IMG/VR virus record: IMGVR_UViG_2909979649_000004
DNA length: 64,000 nt
Source: a virus
Lineage: Duplodnaviria > Caudoviricetes
Reading direction: 5' to 3' (one strand)
Under the pieces are notes generated by a model. It saw nothing but the letters and a program-made list of their open reading frames with translations. It did no database searches and had not been told where the DNA came from. This document shows, one piece after another, positions 28,670 to 55,977 of the stretch. A program made the translations under genes and the position numbers. Within the stretch, counting starts at the first letter, position 1. Each line of letters starts with the position of its first letter.

Positions 28670-29263
28670 TCAACAACTTTTTTCAAATAAATAGCAAAAA
28701 AGTTGATGATTCACTTTTTTATCCCAACTATGAAGTTCATCCAAGCATTCTAAATAACGGGCATGCCATGTTTGACACCAACTTTTATAAGTAATACAAC
28801 ATTTTTCGGCGAGTTCTGCTTTAGTAAGTGCTCTTTTTCCATTTGAACATCGACACTTACGTGTAAAGCTTTTATGTTGATATACACCAGTGCCATTGCA
28901 TGTCTGACAAGTGTTCTCAAAAATGACTTCGTTAATCATTTGTCTAGCAAACTGAAGAAAAAAGAACAGTGACTTTTTCTTATCAGTTGGCCACGGTTCA
29001 CGCCACTTTTCATTAATCCCCTTTGTGATAATGAACTGCTGAGTCAATTTATCGAGTTCGTGTATAACTGTCTTATCATTGTTGTACTTTACTAGTCCTA
29101 ATAAATACGCCTCACGTGGTAAGTCTCCCATTCCAAGTGCCGCCGCGACATCTTCAGGGGTTAACGTTGGCATTCCACCAGGTACACCTTCATATTTAAC
29201 CGACTTAGGTGTTAATAAGGTCATTGCACTCATCTTTATATACTCTTCGTCGTTTCGGGTCAT
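28670..29263 (-). CDS. Late antitermination protein Q (lambda-type)
   Basis: LTPEDVAAALGM, CQTCNGTG..CRC..G zinc finger, W..TW..Y; upstream of lysis genes. Confidence 0.85.
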   Translation of the reverse strand: MTRNDEEYIKMSAMTLLTPKSVKYEGVPGGMPTLTPEDVAAALGMGDLPREAYLLGLVKYNNDKTVIHELDKLTQQFIITKGINEKWREPWPTDKKKSLFFFLQFARQMINEVIFENTCQTCNGTGVYQHKSFTRKCRCSNGKRALTKAELAEKCCITYKSWCQTWHARYLECLDELHSWDKKVNHQLFCYLFEKSC

Positions 29264-32523: not shown

Positions 32524-32529
32524 TATTGC

Positions 32530-32645
32530 TCAACCAAGGGATGTGCAGAGCCCAATAGTCGCGAGGCTACTCCTTATACCTCTCCCATCTCCTTTGTTGT
32601 TTCGGGTTTAGCCGGACTTCCCTTGGGAGGTTCCGGCTTTTTATT
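32530..32645 (+). ncRNA. Putative structured antisense RNA 1
   Basis: No ORF; promoter upstream; caaccaagggatg/catctcctttgttg stem; terminator agccgga..tccggct-T run; anti-SD tracts. Confidence 0.5.
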
Positions 32646-33335: not shown

Positions 33336-33725
33336 ATGGACGGTAACGTAATAGCAGAAGGACACTGGCAAGCGCACCTGAACAATCCGCACCTTGCCCC
33401 TCGGGAGACGTTGTACTGCTTCGGTCTCCTAGCGGGTAAGTCAGATAAACAGATTGCCCGCGATTGTGAAGTCTCACCGGGCACAGTGACGCAACGAATT
33501 AAAACCGTACATTACAAGCTACGGACCCATAACCGGGCACATTTAGTGGCTGAGTTAATTCGGCTAAAAGTGGTCACCCCACTATTGATGGTATTAGCCG
33601 CATTAACACTACCTGATTTACCACTATTAACTGCCCAAGACGATGACCCGAATCAACCCCGCCAGGTTCGCATTACTCAACGACCTGTGCGGCGAGCTGA
33701 TGACTTAACGACATTATTAGTATAA
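33336..33725 (+). CDS. LuxR-type HTH protein
   Basis: LAPRE..G.SDKQIAR..VSPGTV..KL..NRAHLVAE. Confidence 0.8.
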   Translation: MDGNVIAEGHWQAHLNNPHLAPRETLYCFGLLAGKSDKQIARDCEVSPGTVTQRIKTVHYKLRTHNRAHLVAELIRLKVVTPLLMVLAALTLPDLPLLTAQDDDPNQPRQVRITQRPVRRADDLTTLLV

Positions 33726-33736
33726 GGAGCCACACA

Positions 33737-34651
33737 ATGGCATCAATAAAGGAAGCAACTGTTTATAGGCTTAAGGTCCACTCAGATATGGTGGTCGAAA
33801 AAATAATGGGTGGATTACAACAATATGCATTTCAGCCTTGCGGTAAAACCCAAGAATTAAGCCATGGGTTTACACCGGTCGTAGACGATAGCTTTGTTTT
33901 AATGGGCGATCACTTAGTTTTATTCCGTTATAAAATCGAAGAAAAAATATTGCCTAAAGCGGTGATTGAACACCATGCCCAAAGACGCATGGTAGAAGCC
34001 GAAGAAAAAAACGGTAAACCCTTATCAAGACAAGAAAAAGACCAAATAAAAGATGCTGTCCGTGTTGAATTACTCCCGCAAGCATTTAGCCTTTATAAAA
34101 CCATTGATGCCTATATTGATACCCAAAACGGTTGGTTAGTGGTGGGTAGCTGCAATACTACAGCGCTGGATTATGTCTTAGGGGCTATCAGACAAGTAGT
34201 CAGTGGTTTTTCCAGTGAACTAATGGTGACAAAACAAGAACCCAGTTTGATCATGACCGCCTGGATATACCAGGAAGCCTTAGACTTTTCTGAATTTGAG
34301 CTAGGCGACTGCTTTAAAATCTCCAATGGTGAAGGTTCTATTACCTGTCGGAAAGAAGATTTACGCGATCAGGAAATTGTTGATTTATGTGGTACTCGCC
34401 AGGTTAAGCAATTAACCCTTGAAAGTGTGCATTACACGTTTGATGTTACCGAAAACATGCAAATCAAAAGACTTAAAATTGATGACGCTTACACCGATTC
34501 TTTTATAAATAATGAGGAAGAAGACAAGCTTCATTATCTTCGGGTTAATGCGTTTGTCACTCAGCAAACCATCAGTGAAATTATTAACACCTTAATTAAA
34601 GCGTTTGGTGGATTGGTTGAGGAAAGATTGCCAGAAGAGCAAGCGGCATGA
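33737..34651 (+). CDS. rdgC: Recombination-associated protein RdgC
   Basis: F.PCG..SHGF.P..EEKILP..LLPQAF..P..IMT.W. Confidence 0.9.
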   Translation: MASIKEATVYRLKVHSDMVVEKIMGGLQQYAFQPCGKTQELSHGFTPVVDDSFVLMGDHLVLFRYKIEEKILPKAVIEHHAQRRMVEAEEKNGKPLSRQEKDQIKDAVRVELLPQAFSLYKTIDAYIDTQNGWLVVGSCNTTALDYVLGAIRQVVSGFSSELMVTKQEPSLIMTAWIYQEALDFSEFELGDCFKISNGEGSITCRKEDLRDQEIVDLCGTRQVKQLTLESVHYTFDVTENMQIKRLKIDDAYTDSFINNEEEDKLHYLRVNAFVTQQTISEIINTLIKAFGGLVEERLPEEQAA

Positions 34652-37940: not shown

Positions 37941-39562
37941 AACTCCGACCTTATCAGCAGGAAGCGATTCAGGCACTGATTGAATACTTTCATCGTGCCA
38001 CTGGGAATCCGTTAATCTGTATTTCCACTGGTGGCGGTAAGTCGGTGGTGATAGCCGCCTGGTGTCAGTTGGTATTAAACCAATTTCCTAACCAACGAAT
38101 CTTAATACTCAGCCATGTAAAAGAAATCCTGGAGCAGAATTACAGCAAATTAAAAACCCTGGCCCCTGATGTGGATATGGGGATTTATTCGGCTAGCTTA
38201 AAACGCAAAGACAAAGATGCCAGTGTCTTATTTGCCGGTATCCAATCCGTGTATTCCAAAGCGTTTGACTTAGGTCCATTCAATTTAATTATTGTAGATG
38301 AGTGCCACTTAATTAACGCCGATAAAGATACCACTATGTACAGTCAGTTTTTTACCGATGCGAAAAAGATGAATCCCAATATTAAAGTGATTGGGTTTTC
38401 AGCCACACCGTATCGGATGAAATCAGGCTTATTAACTCATGGGGATAATGCTTTATTCCATGAGATTGTTTACGAAACCGATATTCAGCAATTAATTGAT
38501 GATGGCTATTTATCGCCCTTAGTCACCAAAGGTGGCAGGCAGAAAATAGACCTGACTGGCGTACGGACTCAAAATGGCGATTATGCCACCAAGGATATGG
38601 AAAAGGCGGTTAATAAAGATGATTTAACTGATAAAGCCTTGGCTGAAATTATGGAGTTAGGTGCAGACCGAAAAAGCTGGTTAATCTTTGGGGTATCGGT
38701 AAAACACTGTTTGGAAATTGAAGAGAAATTAAAAAAGCAAGGTGTCTCCGTGGGGATCGTCCATGGTAAGACACCTAATAAGTTAAGGGATAGAATTATT
38801 ACTTTGTTCAAACAAGGTAGTATACGTTGTCTAATTTCGCAAGGTGTTTTAACGACGGGATTCGATGCGCCTAGAACGGATTTAATTGCGTTATTACGTT
38901 CGACTAAATCCGCTGGGCTGTATGTGCAGATATTAGGGCGTGGATTACGGATATCACCCGAAACCGGCAAGGCTAATTGTTTAGTGCTGGATTATGGCGG
39001 CAATGTTGAACGCCATGGGCCGATTGATCAAATCAAAGTGAGAAATGCCGGCAAGAAAAAAGAACCGGGTGAAATGCCTATTAAGGAATGCCCCAAATGC
39101 CAGTTATTGATTCCTTGCTTTGAAAAAGAATGCCCAGATTGCGGGTATATTTTTCCCGCACAAGCCCCCCATAAAGCCACGGCCAGTAATAAAGCGGTTT
39201 TGTCTGCTATGCAACAGGCTGAATGGTATCCCGTGGAAGCGGTGTTTTATCAGCTGCATAGTAAGGCGTTTTCGAATAACTCAGTCAAAGTCACTTATCA
39301 ATGTGGCACTGAATTTTTTGATGAGTGGGTTTGTTTTGAGCACACCGGCTTTCCAAAACACCGGGCATTAACCTGGTGGGTGCAACGGGTCGGTTATCAA
39401 CCGCCATGCCCGAATGATTGTGATACGGCATTGGCCTATTTAAATAATAACAAGATCAAAACCCCATCCGCTATTCAGGTTAAACCGGAAGGCAAATACA
39501 AAAAAATAATTAATTACGAGTTTCTACCCGAGACAATAAAGGAAATGGCTTATGGAAATTAA
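37937..39562 (+). CDS. SF2 DExH helicase (RadD/YejH-like) with zinc finger
   Basis: LRPYQ, TGGGKS, DECH, SATP, LTTGFD, Q..GRGLR, CPKC..CPDC. Confidence 0.92.
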   Translation: MKLRPYQQEAIQALIEYFHRATGNPLICISTGGGKSVVIAAWCQLVLNQFPNQRILILSHVKEILEQNYSKLKTLAPDVDMGIYSASLKRKDKDASVLFAGIQSVYSKAFDLGPFNLIIVDECHLINADKDTTMYSQFFTDAKKMNPNIKVIGFSATPYRMKSGLLTHGDNALFHEIVYETDIQQLIDDGYLSPLVTKGGRQKIDLTGVRTQNGDYATKDMEKAVNKDDLTDKALAEIMELGADRKSWLIFGVSVKHCLEIEEKLKKQGVSVGIVHGKTPNKLRDRIITLFKQGSIRCLISQGVLTTGFDAPRTDLIALLRSTKSAGLYVQILGRGLRISPETGKANCLVLDYGGNVERHGPIDQIKVRNAGKKKEPGEMPIKECPKCQLLIPCFEKECPDCGYIFPAQAPHKATASNKAVLSAMQQAEWYPVEAVFYQLHSKAFSNNSVKVTYQCGTEFFDEWVCFEHTGFPKHRALTWWVQRVGYQPPCPNDCDTALAYLNNNKIKTPSAIQVKPEGKYKKIINYEFLPETIKEMAYGN

Positions 39563-48312: not shown

Positions 48313-49467
48313 CTACCACTCATAATTAGGCTTGTATTTATTATCGTCTCCAGCCTCTTCAATAAACATTCCATAATGCCTGTTAATCATCTCAATGCCT
48401 TGGTGGCCCATTTGGCTTGCTATCCAGAATAGGTTTTCATTTCTTGCTATAAGAAGGCATGCGTAGGTATGCCTAGTTTGGTACGGGTTCCGATAGCGTA
48501 GGCCACTTTTTTTTATCGCAGGAATCCAAGCACATTTTCTAATTTGCTGATCATTTTTCCAGGCTTGGTTTGTTCGTGGATTATGAAACACAAAATCGTT
48601 GTTGTTCGTATAGTTAAACTGAGATTCTAGGGCTGATATAGCAGAAGGGAAGAGATGTATTAATCTTTCACCCTTGGTACCTGTTTTGGTGCCTTTGAGT
48701 AGACCTTCTACTTTAGCCTGGTCAATCAAAACAGACTTGCCTTTTAAGTTAACTTTATCCCAAGTAAGTCCTATGAGTTCACTAGTTCTAACCCCTGTAT
48801 AAAAAGCAAACTGAAAAGCATTTTTTACCTGTCCCTCCATGCTTTCCAGTAGCTGTTGTATTTCTGCAGGTTTAAAAGGGTCGACTTTAAAATTACTGAC
48901 TCTAGCATCTTTATGAATGAAATCATCAAGAGATATTGCATCCATTGGTGACCTGGGAATAATAGCGTCTACAACAGCCAGCCGAAGTGCCTTAACTAAG
49001 GGGATAAGGTGGTTGGCAATGGTTTTACGCTTACAATTTTTCGATTTAACCCATTCACGAATATGTTTCGGTGTAAGCTCTGTAACGAGAATTTCTCCAA
49101 ACTCTGGAAGTAGCTGACCTTCAATAGACCGTTTATAGCGCAGAGCTGTTGAAGGCTCTACAGTCCTGTGAAGGTCATTGATATATTCTTTTAGTAACTC
49201 TGCAACTGTAGTATTTACTCGAGTACATTCACCAAATACTTTACACCGTGGGGATTCTGGAAAGTAATCACTGTATTTAAATATGTGACGTTCTATTTTC
49301 CCAATAATTTCTGCTCTAAGCGCTTCAGCATAACGTAAATTTGCTCTAGTTGGCTTTAGCTTTAGGGTTTCTCTACATTCAACCCCTCTATACATGAAAG
49401 CAATCAGAATAGACTCTGATTGCTTATGTTTTCTTATCCTTATTCCTCTAGGAAGCGATGAGGTCAT
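48313..49467 (-). CDS. int: Tyrosine integrase, close paralogue of 40305-41486
   Basis: Same motifs and long identical blocks (e.g. RNENLFWIASQMGHQGIEMINRHYG). Confidence 0.95.
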   Translation of the reverse strand: MTSSLPRGIRIRKHKQSESILIAFMYRGVECRETLKLKPTRANLRYAEALRAEIIGKIERHIFKYSDYFPESPRCKVFGECTRVNTTVAELLKEYINDLHRTVEPSTALRYKRSIEGQLLPEFGEILVTELTPKHIREWVKSKNCKRKTIANHLIPLVKALRLAVVDAIIPRSPMDAISLDDFIHKDARVSNFKVDPFKPAEIQQLLESMEGQVKNAFQFAFYTGVRTSELIGLTWDKVNLKGKSVLIDQAKVEGLLKGTKTGTKGERLIHLFPSAISALESQFNYTNNNDFVFHNPRTNQAWKNDQQIRKCAWIPAIKKSGLRYRNPYQTRHTYACLLIARNENLFWIASQMGHQGIEMINRHYGMFIEEAGDDNKYKPNYEW

Positions 49468-49673: not shown

Positions 49674-50003
49674 TTAACTCATTACCCCAATATACTGAGG
49701 TTTTCTCCGTTTGGTTTTTATTCCGGCTTCTAGTTCATCACGTTCTATCTTGATTGAGAGTGGGGCTTGAATAAATAAATCAACTTGTGACAGTGAATCT
49801 CTAATACCAGCTATATGAGGCATTGCCGTGAGGGATATAGCGTCATTAATATTAAGCTTTTTGCCAAAGTCGATTTGTTTGATTTGTAACTTCCCTTGGT
49901 GAAAAATACTCAGCTCAGCAAAACCGTATCGCCTACCACGCAATACGATACGGTGTTCACCAACTCTGACCGATTCACCAACACGCCTAGTGATGGTTAA
50001 CAT
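49674..50003 (-). CDS. CsrA-like protein with internal insertion/duplication
   Basis: MLTITRRVGESVRVG.. and QV.L.IQAP.SI.I.RDEL. Confidence 0.75.
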   Translation of the reverse strand: MLTITRRVGESVRVGEHRIVLRGRRYGFAELSIFHQGKLQIKQIDFGKKLNINDAISLTAMPHIAGIRDSLSQVDLFIQAPLSIKIERDELEAGIKTKRRKPQYIGVMS

Positions 50004-51433: not shown

Positions 51434-51730
51434 TTATTTAACTTCTAAGTTTTTACCAGTCTCCCAAAGTAGTTTGGCACTATTGGTTAAGGGTTTAACA
51501 AACATGGCTGTCATACCATCATCATGGTCCCAAAATTTCAGTGCAAAATTAAACCCTGCAATTTCTCCTGGGTTCCAATCATTAATTAATTTGTCTCCGT
51601 CCTCTTCTATGTCATAGTCATAGTTATTAACAAAGATCGATTCAAAGCCAAGTTCTTTGGCTAACTCTTCAAAATTAACCATATCGTTTGAGGCTATTTG
51701 AACGAATAAAGGATTTTCCATGGGTGTCAT
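51434..51730 (-). CDS. Hypothetical phage protein
   Basis: SD AAGGAG; acidic, WNP..D.DDG. Confidence 0.65.
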   Translation of the reverse strand: MTPMENPLFVQIASNDMVNFEELAKELGFESIFVNNYDYDIEEDGDKLINDWNPGEIAGFNFALKFWDHDDGMTAMFVKPLTNSAKLLWETGKNLEVK

Positions 51731-51748: not shown

Positions 51749-52147
51749 TTACACGCTTAACGTGCTGAACGTTTCTTGTCGTCTAACAGACCGTTGTGCT
51801 ATCCGCACGGGCCTGGGTTTATTAGGGTCATCTTTAACAACTCGGGGTAATTCAGGTAATGCGAAAAAACTTAATACAATCAGTAATGGACTCACAATTT
51901 TTAGCCGGATCAGCTCAGCCACTAAATGTGCACGGTTATGGGTGTTTAACTTGTAGTGTACATTTTTAATTCGATTACTGACTGAGCTGGGCTCAACCCC
52001 TTGCTCTCTGGCAATGACTTTATCTGTCTTACCCGACAGTAGCCCTATGCAATATTTAATCTCACGCGGGGCTAGGTATGGGTTATTTAGATTGGCTTGC
52101 CAGTGGCCATCGGTAATACAGTTAGTTGCAGGTATTGAGCTGTCCAT
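51749..52147 (-). CDS. LuxR-type HTH protein (homologue of 33336-33725)
   Basis: GHWQA.LNNP.LAPRE..HNRAHLVAELIRLK shared. Confidence 0.82.
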   Translation of the reverse strand: MDSSIPATNCITDGHWQANLNNPYLAPREIKYCIGLLSGKTDKVIAREQGVEPSSVSNRIKNVHYKLNTHNRAHLVAELIRLKIVSPLLIVLSFFALPELPRVVKDDPNKPRPVRIAQRSVRRQETFSTLSV

Positions 52148-52293: not shown

Positions 52294-52983
52294 TTATCTA
52301 TTGATTATATATTCTGCTAAAGCATCAAGGATTTTTAAGTCTGCAGGTGTAAGCTTGTTTTTAGCTACGAGGTCTGTGTAAGTGTTTATGATCCTCATTT
52401 GTTCTTGCCAAAAAGCAGGATCAGGAGATATAGAGTTCGAGGAAATTTTATCGGTATGTTCTTGAGTTGCAGACAAGCTTTCATTTCCATCAAGTAACCA
52501 AAGGTGGTTTACTTTTAAAACTTCACTTAGCTTCTGTAGCTTATTCCGTTTAGGATAAGCCCTTGTCTCAGGATCTTTGGACTCCCATTTACCAACTGCA
52601 GCTAAAGATACTTCGCAGTATTTAGCTATTTCACCCTGTGTTAGGTTCAACTCTTTTCGGCGCTTACGAAGTTTCGACCAAAGGCTACTCATCTGACGCT
52701 CATTTACTTTGGCTTTAGCTTTTTGGTATTCATCCTCCTCAAGAATAGATACAGCTGAGAATATTGAATCCTCATCATCTGAGTAAAACCAATTAGTATC
52801 AACTTGTAATATTTCACTTAGTTTTTGTATTTTGTCTTGTCTGGGAAAGGCTTGTCTTTCAGGGGCTTGTGACTCCCATTGAGAAACTGAAGTCACAGAA
52901 ACCTCGCAATAGTCTGCGACTTCTTTTTGAGTTAAATCTAGCTCTCTGCGTCGCGCTCTAAGTTTTTTCCAGATTTCACTCAT
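52294..52983 (-). CDS. Repressor with two tandem XRE HTH domains
   Basis: MS..W.KLR.RR.EL.LTQ.E.A.YCEVS..WES occurs twice. Confidence 0.85.
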   Translation of the reverse strand: MSEIWKKLRARRRELDLTQKEVADYCEVSVTSVSQWESQAPERQAFPRQDKIQKLSEILQVDTNWFYSDDEDSIFSAVSILEEDEYQKAKAKVNERQMSSLWSKLRKRRKELNLTQGEIAKYCEVSLAAVGKWESKDPETRAYPKRNKLQKLSEVLKVNHLWLLDGNESLSATQEHTDKISSNSISPDPAFWQEQMRIINTYTDLVAKNKLTPADLKILDALAEYIINR

Positions 52984-53036
52984 GCAAAAATTCTACTTGA
53001 AGTTTACAAAATTCGCTATTACTATGACAATACAAT

Positions 53037-53197
53037 AAAAAAACCGGCACCCTACAATAGAGTACCGGTTAACATGTTAAACCCTTATCAGCACAAACAC
53101 CAGTGCCTGTGGCACCTTTACGCCTAAATTCAGCGGTATATGTGAAAAGGAGACAAAAGCACATACCCTGATAGGTCGATTGTGTTTGTGCTGAATA
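53037..53197 (-). ncRNA. Putative structured antisense RNA 2
   Basis: Promoter GTGACG-N17-TAAAGT (53232-53204); 13-bp closing stem 53088-53100/53182-53194 enclosing hairpins; terminator accgg..ccggt-T run. Confidence 0.62.
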
Positions 53198-53510
53198 GGT
53201 AAAACTTTATCTCAAGTTTTAGTAAGCGTCACTTAACTTAATTCTACTGTTAGTTTATACAGTCACCAACCTAGCAAGGAGCATCCATGATGGTACCTCA
53301 ATGTAAGACTTAGCTAACCCTCTAATACTCTCGTTGTATTTCGAGGGTGTTTTATCAACCAATGACTTATTAATTACTGACTGAATTCAGTGAGCTAAGG
53401 ATTTTTTATGTCTGAAAAAAATAAGGCAGGGTTTCTTGCAGGCAATAAAAAAGCTGCTAACCCCCGCAAAGAGAAAAGCAGCTTTCCTAACCACATTTGG
53501 AGTATTTATT

Positions 53511-54425
53511 ATGGATGATGTTTATGATAACTGCAATGGCTATGTACGACTCAATAACCAGTTATTGGAAGCTATTTGTCAGCTGGATATTTCTGGCCGC
53601 CAGTTTCGTATTTTGATGGCGGTGATTAGAAAAACAATTGGCTATAACATCGAGGTTGACTGGATTTCTGCCAGCCAATTAGCTGATTTAATGGCTTATG
53701 ATGGTGCCACCACCCACCTACATGCCGATTTACGAATACTCAAAGAGCGCAAAATCGTAATCACCAGAGGTCGTAAAATTGGCATCAATAAAAGTTTGGC
53801 TAACTGGTGTTTTAGCAAAATCGAAACTAACCAAAAACCGTCACTAAACAAACCGAAATCGGTCACTCATAAAGAAACCAAAAACGGTCAGGTTAGTGAC
53901 CGAAATCCGTCAGTAAACAAACCGAATTCCGTCACTCCCAAACAAACCGAAAACGGTCAGTGTAGTGACCGAAATCGGTCAGAAAAAGTGACTGAAAACG
54001 GTCACCACAAAAGACAAAAAGACACTAAACCAAAAAACACTATTACCCCCTTTAATCCCCCCTTGGAGGAAACCAACCCACAACCGAGTAAAAAATCCAA
54101 ACGTCGTACACCAGCCAAACGAACCACCACTGCCCCTGAACATTTTCCGATGACACCGGAATTAATTCGGTGGGCCAGTGAGAATTTTATTCGGGTCGAT
54201 TTGATTATCGAAACTGAAAAATTTCTGGATCACCACCGGGCCAAAGGTTCCACGTTCACTTGCTGGGCGTCAGCCTGGCGAAACTGGATGCGTAATGCCC
54301 AACGCTTTGCGGCTGAAAAAGCCATGCCACCCGTTCCAACGACCGGCCCTGTTAAACCCAATGGAATCAAACCTGGGGGGATGGATTGGGATGATACCAG
54401 CTGGCGCCATGACTTAGGTCTGTGA
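53511..54425 (+). CDS. Replication initiator (lambda O-like)
   Basis: NGYVRLNNQLLEA..RQFR..RKTIGY..DWI..Q; internal iterons; F.DH..W..AWRNW. Confidence 0.9.
   Translation: MDDVYDNCNGYVRLNNQLLEAICQLDISGRQFRILMAVIRKTIGYNIEVDWISASQLADLMAYDGATTHLHADLRILKERKIVITRGRKIGINKSLANWCFSKIETNQKPSLNKPKSVTHKETKNGQVSDRNPSVNKPNSVTPKQTENGQCSDRNRSEKVTENGHHKRQKDTKPKNTITPFNPPLEETNPQPSKKSKRRTPAKRTTTAPEHFPMTPELIRWASENFIRVDLIIETEKFLDHHRAKGSTFTCWASAWRNWMRNAQRFAAEKAMPPVPTTGPVKPNGIKPGGMDWDDTSWRHDLGL
53829..54005 (+). repeat. Iterons (ori) within O
   Basis: 8 copies of RACCGAAAWCSGTCAS-like 16-mer. Confidence 0.85.
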
Positions 54426-55641: not shown

Positions 55642-55977
55642 TTATTCAATAATATTTATAGGCTTGTTTAAAAACTTCTTATTACCTTTCCGCAATGCGG
55701 CTACCAGTTTAACGACGGCTTGTTGCTGATCGTTGGTTAAACCTCGTAGAAAAAAATACTTATCTCCCGTCAACAGCCAGTCAATGGAAATATTCAACTC
55801 TTTACAGGTTTCAATAATATGTTCCAGGCTAATTGATCCACCTTTTCGCCAGTGGGTCACGGCGGTATGACTGATGCCCAAAGAATCCGCCAGTTGACGT
55901 ACAGTTATATTTCGGGTGCCCATTGCTTTGGTTAGGCGCTTTCCACGTTGTTGATTTTCGTTTATTTCATTCATCAT
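55642..55977 (-). CDS. XRE-family HTH regulator
   Basis: RL..QLADSLGISHTAVTHWR.G..L.ISIDWLLTG. Confidence 0.85.
   Translation of the reverse strand: MMNEINENQQRGKRLTKAMGTRNITVRQLADSLGISHTAVTHWRKGGSISLEHIIETCKELNISIDWLLTGDKYFFLRGLTNDQQQAVVKLVAALRKGNKKFLNKPINIIE

Follow-up and report, generated by a model that had tools for sequence, protein, structure and literature searches.

A predicted folded, terminated small RNA at the Cox/Cro position of prophages in the Zooshikellaceae

Phages P2, 186 and HP1 provide the textbook switches in which convergent promoters are combined with a Cox or Apl protein, and the locus described here raises the question of what does this job where no such protein is encoded. 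The analysed sequence, referred to below as the window, is a stretch of 64,000 nucleotides (nt) from the virus record IMGVR_UViG_2909979649_000004, corresponding to C1:1279604-1343603 of a 6.69-Mb genome, and it contains two prophages. In prophage 2, a gap of 527 base pairs (bp) lies to the right of the immunity repressor gene, followed by lambda O-/P-like replication genes from 53511. No plus-strand open reading frame (ORF) of at least 40 amino acids (aa) was found between 53233 and the replication gene at 53511, and the same was true in two paralogous loci. The initial annotation had described both prophages as lacking Cro, and a conserved RNA gene at the Cro/Cox position, convergent with the lytic promoter, was confirmed in both of them and in further related prophages, with no Cro- or Cox-sized ORF in the copies checked for ORFs. 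Instead, the gap holds a real-looking RNA gene of about 160 nt between the repressor and the early lytic genes, with the following predicted parts.

53232-53204, minus strand: small-RNA promoter GTGACG-17-TAAAGT (GTGACG at 53232-53227, TAAAGT at 53209-53204), from reading of the sequence
53037..53196, minus strand: small RNA of about 160 nt with a closing stem, two inner hairpins, a linker and a terminator, from the fold, inverted repeat I1 and model R1
53182-53199 with 53083-53100, minus strand: closing stem of the small RNA, from the predicted fold
53135..53168, minus strand: hairpin with the 15-nt loop CUUUUGUCUCCUUUU (53145-53159) containing an anti-Shine-Dalgarno-like CUCC, from the predicted fold
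53071..53089, minus strand: single-stranded linker GAUAAGGGUUUAACAUGUU between closing stem and terminator, from the fold and subgroup conservation
53037..53070, minus strand: intrinsic terminator, a CCGG-rich stem followed by U7, from the terminator scan and the family alignment

The two opposed promoters, the 13-bp closing stem, the inner hairpins and the CCGG terminator had all been pointed out in the initial annotation, and each was found where it had been placed. The minus-strand RNA from 53200 to 53030 has a predicted folding energy of -68.7 kcal/mol (z = -6.7 against 200 shuffles), and the fold consists of the 13-bp closing stem, two inner hairpins, one of them with the 15-nt CUCC loop, and the terminator. 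The terminator scan gave 13 pairs in the stem at 53070-53042 followed by a T run, and four terminator-like sites were counted in 1 kb where 0.6 were expected. The RNA at 53037..53196 scored 167 bits with the covariance model R1, and its 5' end was placed near 53196 on the basis of the -10 box.

Folding energy does not fix the strand of the RNA, since both strands fold about equally well. This observation, together with the operator repeats and the LexA box in or beside the region, would suit an alternative in which there is no RNA gene and the conservation comes from DNA elements such as operators, LexA sites and replication sites, with the hairpins being incidental. We weighed it against the pattern of sequence change among 14 distinct sequences fitted to the model, an alignment that by its construction leans towards the model. 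Paired cells amounted to 74%, compared with 35-43% when the partners were slid, and double-sided changes were seen in 25 of the 50 pairs, with an observed score that was reached by 0 of 500 shuffles; a covariation count based on MAFFT gave the same picture. The covariance model built de novo from related prophages, which the initial annotation had suggested as a check, thus indicates that pairing is kept through compensatory changes. In the terminator, 9 of the 13 pairs show double-sided changes, which fixes the strand, and the G-U pairs of the helices fit the minus strand. The helices are maintained by compensatory changes, the U run of the terminator is confined to one strand and the terminator covaries, and the promoter hexamers are aligned across subgroups; we therefore consider the explanation by DNA elements very improbable. 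A coding role for the RNA region was also rejected, as the start codon is not conserved and the insertions and deletions are not multiples of three; so was a mini-ORF in the linker (AAGGG..AUG), which is not retained in subgroups C and D or in one copy of subgroup A. None of the Rfam 15 families matched anywhere in the window at the gathering score. Within 52700-53600, where matches with E values up to 10 were considered, the best E value was 1.3, with unrelated eukaryotic and other families, and C4 was not among them, so the possibility raised in the initial annotation that the RNA would turn out to be an already known c4 RNA did not materialize.

Seventeen copies of the unit were read, all in related Zooshikellaceae prophages, and these fall into five sequence subgroups, A to E. 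For this family NCBI has just two genera, Zooshikella (with Zooshikella ganghwensis DSM 15267 as one relative) and Spartinivicinus, and the genus of the window is therefore probably Spartinivicinus. A BLAST search with the unit returned three further copies in the same genome and others in three related genomes, and a covariance model together with a simple descriptor raised the number in this genome to seven, including the unit of prophage 1 (32527-32645, plus strand) and its near twin. Subgroup A comprises the copy described here and three in Zooshikella, subgroup B six copies, subgroup C two, and subgroup D the type of prophage 1, while subgroup E, found by layout, occurs in three Zooshikella species. 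The order is the same in every copy: repressor start, lytic-strand promoter, terminator, RNA body and RNA promoter. The body diverges between conserved elements, namely the RNA promoter, the closing stem, the U-rich linker, the terminator and the lytic promoter that abuts it. In subgroups A, B and C, every copy aligns over an RNA promoter of the form (A/G)TGAC(A/G)-17-TA(A/T)A(G/T)T, which is the best-conserved stretch between the window and Zooshikella. Subgroups A-D retain the linker motif (A/C)GGGUUUA, for which subgroup E has GGUUUUUAU. Subgroups A, B, C and D have hairpins that present a CUCC loop on differing stems, and the loop is missing from subgroup E and from one B copy (L004). The subgroup E RNAs (L062 2553-2705, minus strand; L063; L064) share the layout, closing stem, U-rich linker and terminator, and their bodies are quite different. 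In a search set consisting of the window and two loci, the linker and terminator of prophage 1 (32593-32645) were the fourth-best match to R1 (20.9 bits, E 0.017). The earlier statement that the two prophages have unrelated internal sequence is accordingly only partly right.

The seven copies in this genome belong to modules of small RNA, repressor and LuxR-type gene at about 114, 1312, 1332, 1372, 2643, 4453 and 4496 kb of C1, which span four RNA subgroups with different repressors. Three of these modules have nearly the same subgroup B RNA and repressors that differ (137 aa with one helix-turn-helix (HTH) versus about 250 aa with two). Outside the family, the RNA model, run on 151 genomes of the order, found nothing in the 147 others, and the linked LuxR-like protein, used as a marker, gave nothing convincing in 400 genomes of the class. 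A blastn search of the region against phage GenBank records gave no match, IMG/VR returned only contigs duplicating the loci of this genome, and two metagenome scans yielded no family member. Based on these observations, we suggest that the unit represents a new RNA family, without an Rfam counterpart and so far restricted to this lineage.

What such an RNA might do is suggested by its position relative to the lytic promoter.

52997..53025, plus strand: predicted early lytic promoter P_R, TTGAAG-17-TACTAT (TTGAAG at 52997-53002, TACTAT at 53020-53025), with a start near 53032

P_R is predicted to start at about 53032, some 5 nt beyond the U tract of the RNA, and the predicted starts at 53032 and 53196 are convergent and about 165 bp apart. 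A sigma-70-like promoter site on the lytic strand, with its -10 ending 0-24 nt (mostly 8-10) before the 3' end of the RNA, was present in 13 of 14 copies. The RNA appears to have its own promoter and terminator on the strand opposite to the lytic transcript, and both are conserved across the subgroups; if the predicted starts hold, it would be complementary to the first 160 nt or so of the P_R transcripts. The annotated record of HP1 shows cI, then PR1/PR2 directed rightward at the cI start codon, and P_L directed leftward about 100 bp further on, inside cox. By analogy, the small-RNA promoter is the positional equivalent of HP1 P_L and P_R stands where HP1 has PR1. Relative to HP1, cox is missing, and the space between the promoters seems to have gained a folded, terminated RNA. 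In prophage 1, where the first early gene begins 62 nt past the RNA promoter, the predicted P_R and that gene flank the RNA gene. The RNA gene there would thus be located inside the 5' leader of the early operon if the predicted P_R is real, and this geometry makes the overlap in prophage 1 independent of any second rightward promoter.

From this anatomy we infer an RNA control of lysis versus lysogeny, in which the small RNA would be expressed, would pair in vivo and would affect the switch. Specifically, we favour, with roughly even confidence, the reading that the small RNA is a countertranscript of the P_R leader which, together with interference between the convergent promoters, does the job of Cox, Apl or Cro. 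In a lysogen the RNA would pair with the leaders of leaky P_R transcripts, which would then be cut or not extended, and an active P_R would in turn shut off the RNA promoter by convergent transcription. Pairing and convergence together would give the reciprocal control that Cox, Apl or Cro gives elsewhere, and partial read-through at the terminator may in addition supply transcripts of the repressor gene. We favour the countertranscript because the geometry in cis, and not any seed sequence, is common to all subgroups. A fast-diverging body within a fixed architecture is also the pattern expected if the target is the RNA's own complement.

Several observations weigh against this reading. P_R matches the consensus at only 8 of 12 positions, and the promoter scan favoured an overlapping site. 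The apical loops of the small RNA are 12-15 nt, larger than those of classical countertranscripts, which have 5-8 nt. The bodies of subgroup B fold no better than shuffles (z = -0.3), and the family occurs in one bacterial family only, so that the comparisons are not fully independent. The prophage 1 RNA has long complementarity to two distant start regions, described below. In addition, a possible second rightward promoter, TTAACT-17-TATACA, has its -10 overlapped by the LexA box in this copy, and its transcripts would not overlap the small RNA. This second promoter was unconvincing in subgroups B, C and E, and a consensus rightward promoter over the LexA box was set aside, as it could not be established outside this subgroup.

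The chief rival starts from the fact that in every copy the RNA is on the strand of the repressor and directly upstream of its gene. The structured RNA would then be mainly the 5' leader of the repressor mRNA, the terminator an attenuator whose read-through determines how much repressor is made, and the terminated RNA a by-product. In this view the repressor gene would be transcribed from the RNA promoter alone, as it is from P_L in HP1. The positional equivalence to P_L fits this explanation, as does the lack of a convincing conserved separate repressor promoter; candidates in the window are limited to TTGTCA-18-TAAACT or, alternatively, a leaderless-type TAGAAT whose -35 is poor. The U tracts are interrupted in two Zooshikella copies, which fits partial read-through, and short and read-through isoforms from one promoter are described for Salmonella IsrK (PMC4825925). 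However, stems of about 13 bp followed by 6-7 U make most of the terminators strong, neither an antiterminator structure nor a protein site was identified, and the repressor start lacks a Shine-Dalgarno sequence, which fits a leaderless mRNA from a promoter of its own. We regard a role mainly as a leader as possible but unlikely. The leader and antisense roles can coexist, and read-through is compatible with the countertranscript as a second role.

A different type of action was proposed in the initial annotation, in which the RNA would pair with the start region of a CsrA-like gene.

49674..50003, minus strand: CsrA-like gene (Pfam CsrA PF02599, 30.0 bits against a cut-off of 27, E 5e-7; PHROG 9500, 'CsrA-like regulator')

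The pairing itself does exist: the RNA segment UGUGCUUUUGUC matches the csrA start site GACAAAAGCAUG (50012-50001) over 12 bp, with 10 Watson-Crick and 2 G-U pairs, and a 2-nt bulge extends it by pairing AAGGA with UCCUU. RNAduplex energies were uninformative, as long loose duplexes dominate and csrA ranked 50th of 118, and they were replaced by counts of contiguous helices and shuffles. By this measure the csrA-like gene ranks first for contiguous pairing among the 157 start regions of the window, a result that would suit a rival explanation in which the RNA of this copy acts mainly in trans through the CUCC loop and the linker, with the csrA-like start as its target. Among shuffled RNAs, however, 13% also form a run of 10 contiguous Watson-Crick pairs with one of the 48 prophage 2 start regions. 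The extended pairing is confined to this copy. In five paralogues in the genome, the csrA-like start regions are near-identical to one another (..uuuaggagcuguuuaauuAUG), and their pairing with the cognate RNAs is limited to GGAG/CUCC and does not exceed that with non-cognate ones. The closest relative, a phage of Zooshikella ganghwensis, has the RNA (84% identical) and the CsrA-like protein (59% identical) on one contig; its loop CUUUCUAUCUCCCU and start region aaauaaggaaaaacuAUG have both changed, and no helix scoring at least 9 is left. By tblastn, prophage 1 has no csrA-like gene, though the RNA is present, and the CsrA-like protein gave no match to phage GenBank records. The proposed link thus fails in the five paralogous phages, in the closest relative and in prophage 1, and it is probably due to chance; a functional csrA pairing of the small RNA deserves very little credence. 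The argument that occurrence in both phages speaks against chance holds for the RNA unit, whose copies are homologous with the same layout, and not for the csrA pairing, given the frequency among shuffles. The CsrA connection, the most unusual-looking part of the finding, therefore does not hold up. A role as a CsrA sponge of the CsrB/RsmZ type was likewise rejected, as the RNA strand is without any GGA and the GGA motifs are on the lytic-leader strand. A sixth csrA-like gene was noted at C1:1258741-1259076, in an apparent prophage remnant beside duplicated genes resembling those of insertion sequences, and no small-RNA unit was found near it.

In other subgroups, action in trans would have the Q-like antiterminator and the integrase-proximal operon as targets. 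The segment UCCUUUGUUGUUUCGGGU of the prophage 1 RNA forms an 18-bp helix with the start region of a 77-aa gene ahead of xis/int (39525-39542, plus strand), and the matching site in the twin prophage extends over about 23 bp by reading. The same segment forms a 16-bp helix with the start region of the Q-like antiterminator gene (29245-29261, minus strand; PHROG 127, E 1e-10). These helices score 17 and 15, whereas the best scores of 300 shuffles averaged 11.1 and peaked at 15.5, so that none of the shuffles reached the top score. RNAs of subgroups B and C pair over 11-12 bp, through the conserved linker AAGGGUUUAUU, with AAUAAACCCUU directly upstream of the Shine-Dalgarno sequence of the Q-like gene, and at the rdgC start region there are 10-nt matches that differ between subgroups B and D. 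Sites with AAUAAACCCUU are at C1:2651071, 1378387, 4447053 and 109650, and also in L052, L057, L060 and L053. The motif ACCCGAAACRAC, with at most one mismatch, occurs 6 times in the window, where 0.33 were expected. Two 13-nt linker matches, near 51500 and near 34015, were rejected because neither is at a start site and the one near 51500 is absent in Zooshikella. Based on these helices, some family members probably act in trans. For the copy described here, prophage 2 has no Q-like gene, the subgroup E RNAs have neither a CUCC loop nor a match longer than 8 bp to their own Q-like start region, one B copy is without the loop, and pairing with the leader is not specific to the cognate RNA. Together with the shuffles and the losses of the csrA pairing described above, these points make it improbable that the RNA of prophage 2 acts mainly in trans.

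Upstream of the RNA promoter are two further elements, which were considered in relation to induction.

53247..53262, no strand assigned: LexA box CTGT-N8-ACAG, 14-15 bp upstream of the -35 of the RNA promoter
53276..53313, plus strand: AAGGAG and the 8-codon mini-ORF MMVPQCKT in the early leader, with A(A/G)GGAG invariant in 11 copies

The CTGT-N8-ACAG pattern occurs 3 times in the window, compared with 0.59 expected, and a box of the same kind is upstream of the host lexA gene. Its offset (-59/-58) is the same in all 12 copies belonging to subgroups A, B and C, 8 of which have a perfect box; subgroup E has the box too, and subgroup D, the type of prophage 1, lacks it. Loci with the phased box are L002, L003, L004, L010, L011, L012, L013, L014, L016, L024, L028 and L062-L064. 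With the box centred near -58 relative to the start of the RNA, the RNA promoter could be a further target of LexA, and since the repressors lack a self-cleavage domain, the box may be the SOS input of these prophages. The mini-ORF has 16-18 codons in B and C copies (MEVVK..PQCI.PKSQSG), and three Zooshikella copies keep AAGGAG with no start codon there. A mini-ORF likewise follows the LexA box in L002 (about 1690-1760), L003, L004 and L028.

A LexA box separates a divergent RNA promoter from a small ORF whose Shine-Dalgarno sequence is strong, and the RNA has an anti-Shine-Dalgarno loop; the arrangement recalls type I toxin-antitoxin pairs of the tisB/istR-1 kind, in which a LexA-controlled small ORF is blocked by a divergent RNA. 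Yet the peptides are hydrophilic, with a length of no more than 8-18 aa, a start codon is missing in three copies, and prophage 1 has the RNA and neither the LexA box nor the ORF. The pairing covers only 4-9 bp around GGAG and is not cognate-specific; between RNA and early leader, 7-nt matches are no better with the cognate partner than with non-cognate ones. A toxin-antitoxin-like pair is therefore scarcely credible here. We also considered a broader proposal, a two-layer immunity in which the RNA would be the true immunity factor, silencing its own P_R leader in cis and, in some subgroups, the Q-like gene or integrase-proximal operon in trans, and would be a determinant of heteroimmunity beside the repressor. 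The phased LexA box would couple the RNA and the repressor promoter to the SOS response, and cleavage of LexA, rather than self-cleavage of the repressor or Cox, would flip the switch. We consider this proposal quite unlikely as a whole.

The surrounding genes give the setting of the countertranscript that we favour. The phage backbone is of the P2/HP1 type, with an Ogr-like regulator, portal and terminase assigned by PHROG. The gene order in prophage 2, from Pfam, PHROG and the ORFs, is integrase (48313-49467), excisionase-like gene, CsrA-like gene, several small genes, LuxR-type gene and repressor, and to the right of the gap the replication genes are followed by a second CI-like gene and then the Ogr-like, portal and terminase genes.

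52294..52983, minus strand: immunity repressor with two tandem HTH domains (Pfam HTH_3 twice, E 1.3e-21; PHROG transcriptional repressor families)
52989-53006, 53201-53219 and 53240-53257, no strand assigned: direct repeat AATTCTACT..AGTTTA of about 18 bp, candidate repressor operator (repeat families D1 and D2)

A Pfam search of the repressor did not find the S24 peptidase domain of autocleavage. The three copies of the direct repeat overlap the P_R -35, the RNA promoter -10 and the LexA box, and the AATTCTACT..AGTTTA repeats are candidate operators to which the two-HTH repressor may bind. The second CI-type gene (55642-55977, minus strand; Pfam Phage_CI_repr, 111 aa) has the replication genes on one side and the ogr-like gene on the other, and is encoded on the opposite strand from the early operon. 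The LuxR-type genes at 51749-52147 (minus strand) and 33336-33725 (plus strand) encode a protein of 130-150 aa with a GerE/LuxR HTH, in a PHROG family labelled 'sigma factor'. This protein comes after the repressor in every copy examined, and five aligned copies are 62-67% identical to the protein of the window despite differing repressors. The replication protein found only distant lambda-O homologues among phage GenBank records.

How does this arrangement compare with known systems? Phage antisense RNAs and face-to-face switches are both already known. ColE1 RNA I, R1 CopA and IS10 RNA-OUT resemble the countertranscript proposed here in being constitutive-looking, folded small RNAs that are fully complementary to the 5' leader of their target and end near its start. 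The prophage RNA differs from these plasmid and transposon countertranscripts in its phage-switch context and its much larger loops, has no Rfam or sequence relationship to them, and has no identified downstream attenuator or primer function. Among phages, P22 sar, lambda OOP and paQ, P1/P7 c4 and P4 CI RNA pair with lytic or antirepressor transcripts and support lysogeny (PMC12197685). The c4 and CI RNAs act in trans on sites elsewhere, as the RNA of prophage 1 may do. However, none of these RNAs is known to sit at the place of Cro or Cox between the repressor and the early operon; sar and OOP overlap coding genes, and c4 and CI are processed from longer transcripts.

For the LexA box, the closest comparison is CTXphi, in which DNA damage lifts the transcription of rstA and lowers that of rstR (PMC5963079; PMC13250501). 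As at ig-2 of CTXphi, which has the divergent promoters P_rstR and P_rstA, the box here is between the repressor-side promoter and the replication-side genes, and the repressor cannot cleave itself. Unlike this prophage, CTXphi is filamentous and has no small RNA at ig-2. LexA was reportedly found by Kimsey and Waldor in 2009 to activate P_rstR of CTXphi directly.

With the switches of HP1, P2 and 186, the locus shares, as predicted here, a rightward lytic promoter beside the repressor start codon and a leftward promoter facing it, whose transcripts would overlap. In P2-like phages the face-to-face promoters are 40-60 bp apart and Cox or Apl is the first early gene, and in phage 186 pR interferes with pL (PMC7498355). 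Here, in contrast, the distance between the predicted promoters is about 165 bp, the leftward transcript would fold and end at a strong terminator, and no cox or apl gene opens the early operon, an excisionase-like gene being located beside int instead. As far as the literature was searched, we found no terminated small RNA at the Cox position of an HP1/P2-type switch, phased with a LexA box. If the reading as a countertranscript is true, an RNA can do the job of Cro or Cox in a phage with a protein repressor, one cell can harbour several related prophages whose RNAs belong to different subgroups, as the seven RNA gene copies here would exemplify, and the locus would be an experimentally simple system in which to separate antisense pairing from transcriptional interference. 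Compared with HP1, P2 and 186, the same scaffold thus seems to have swapped the Cox or Apl protein for a terminated, folded countertranscript and a LexA site.

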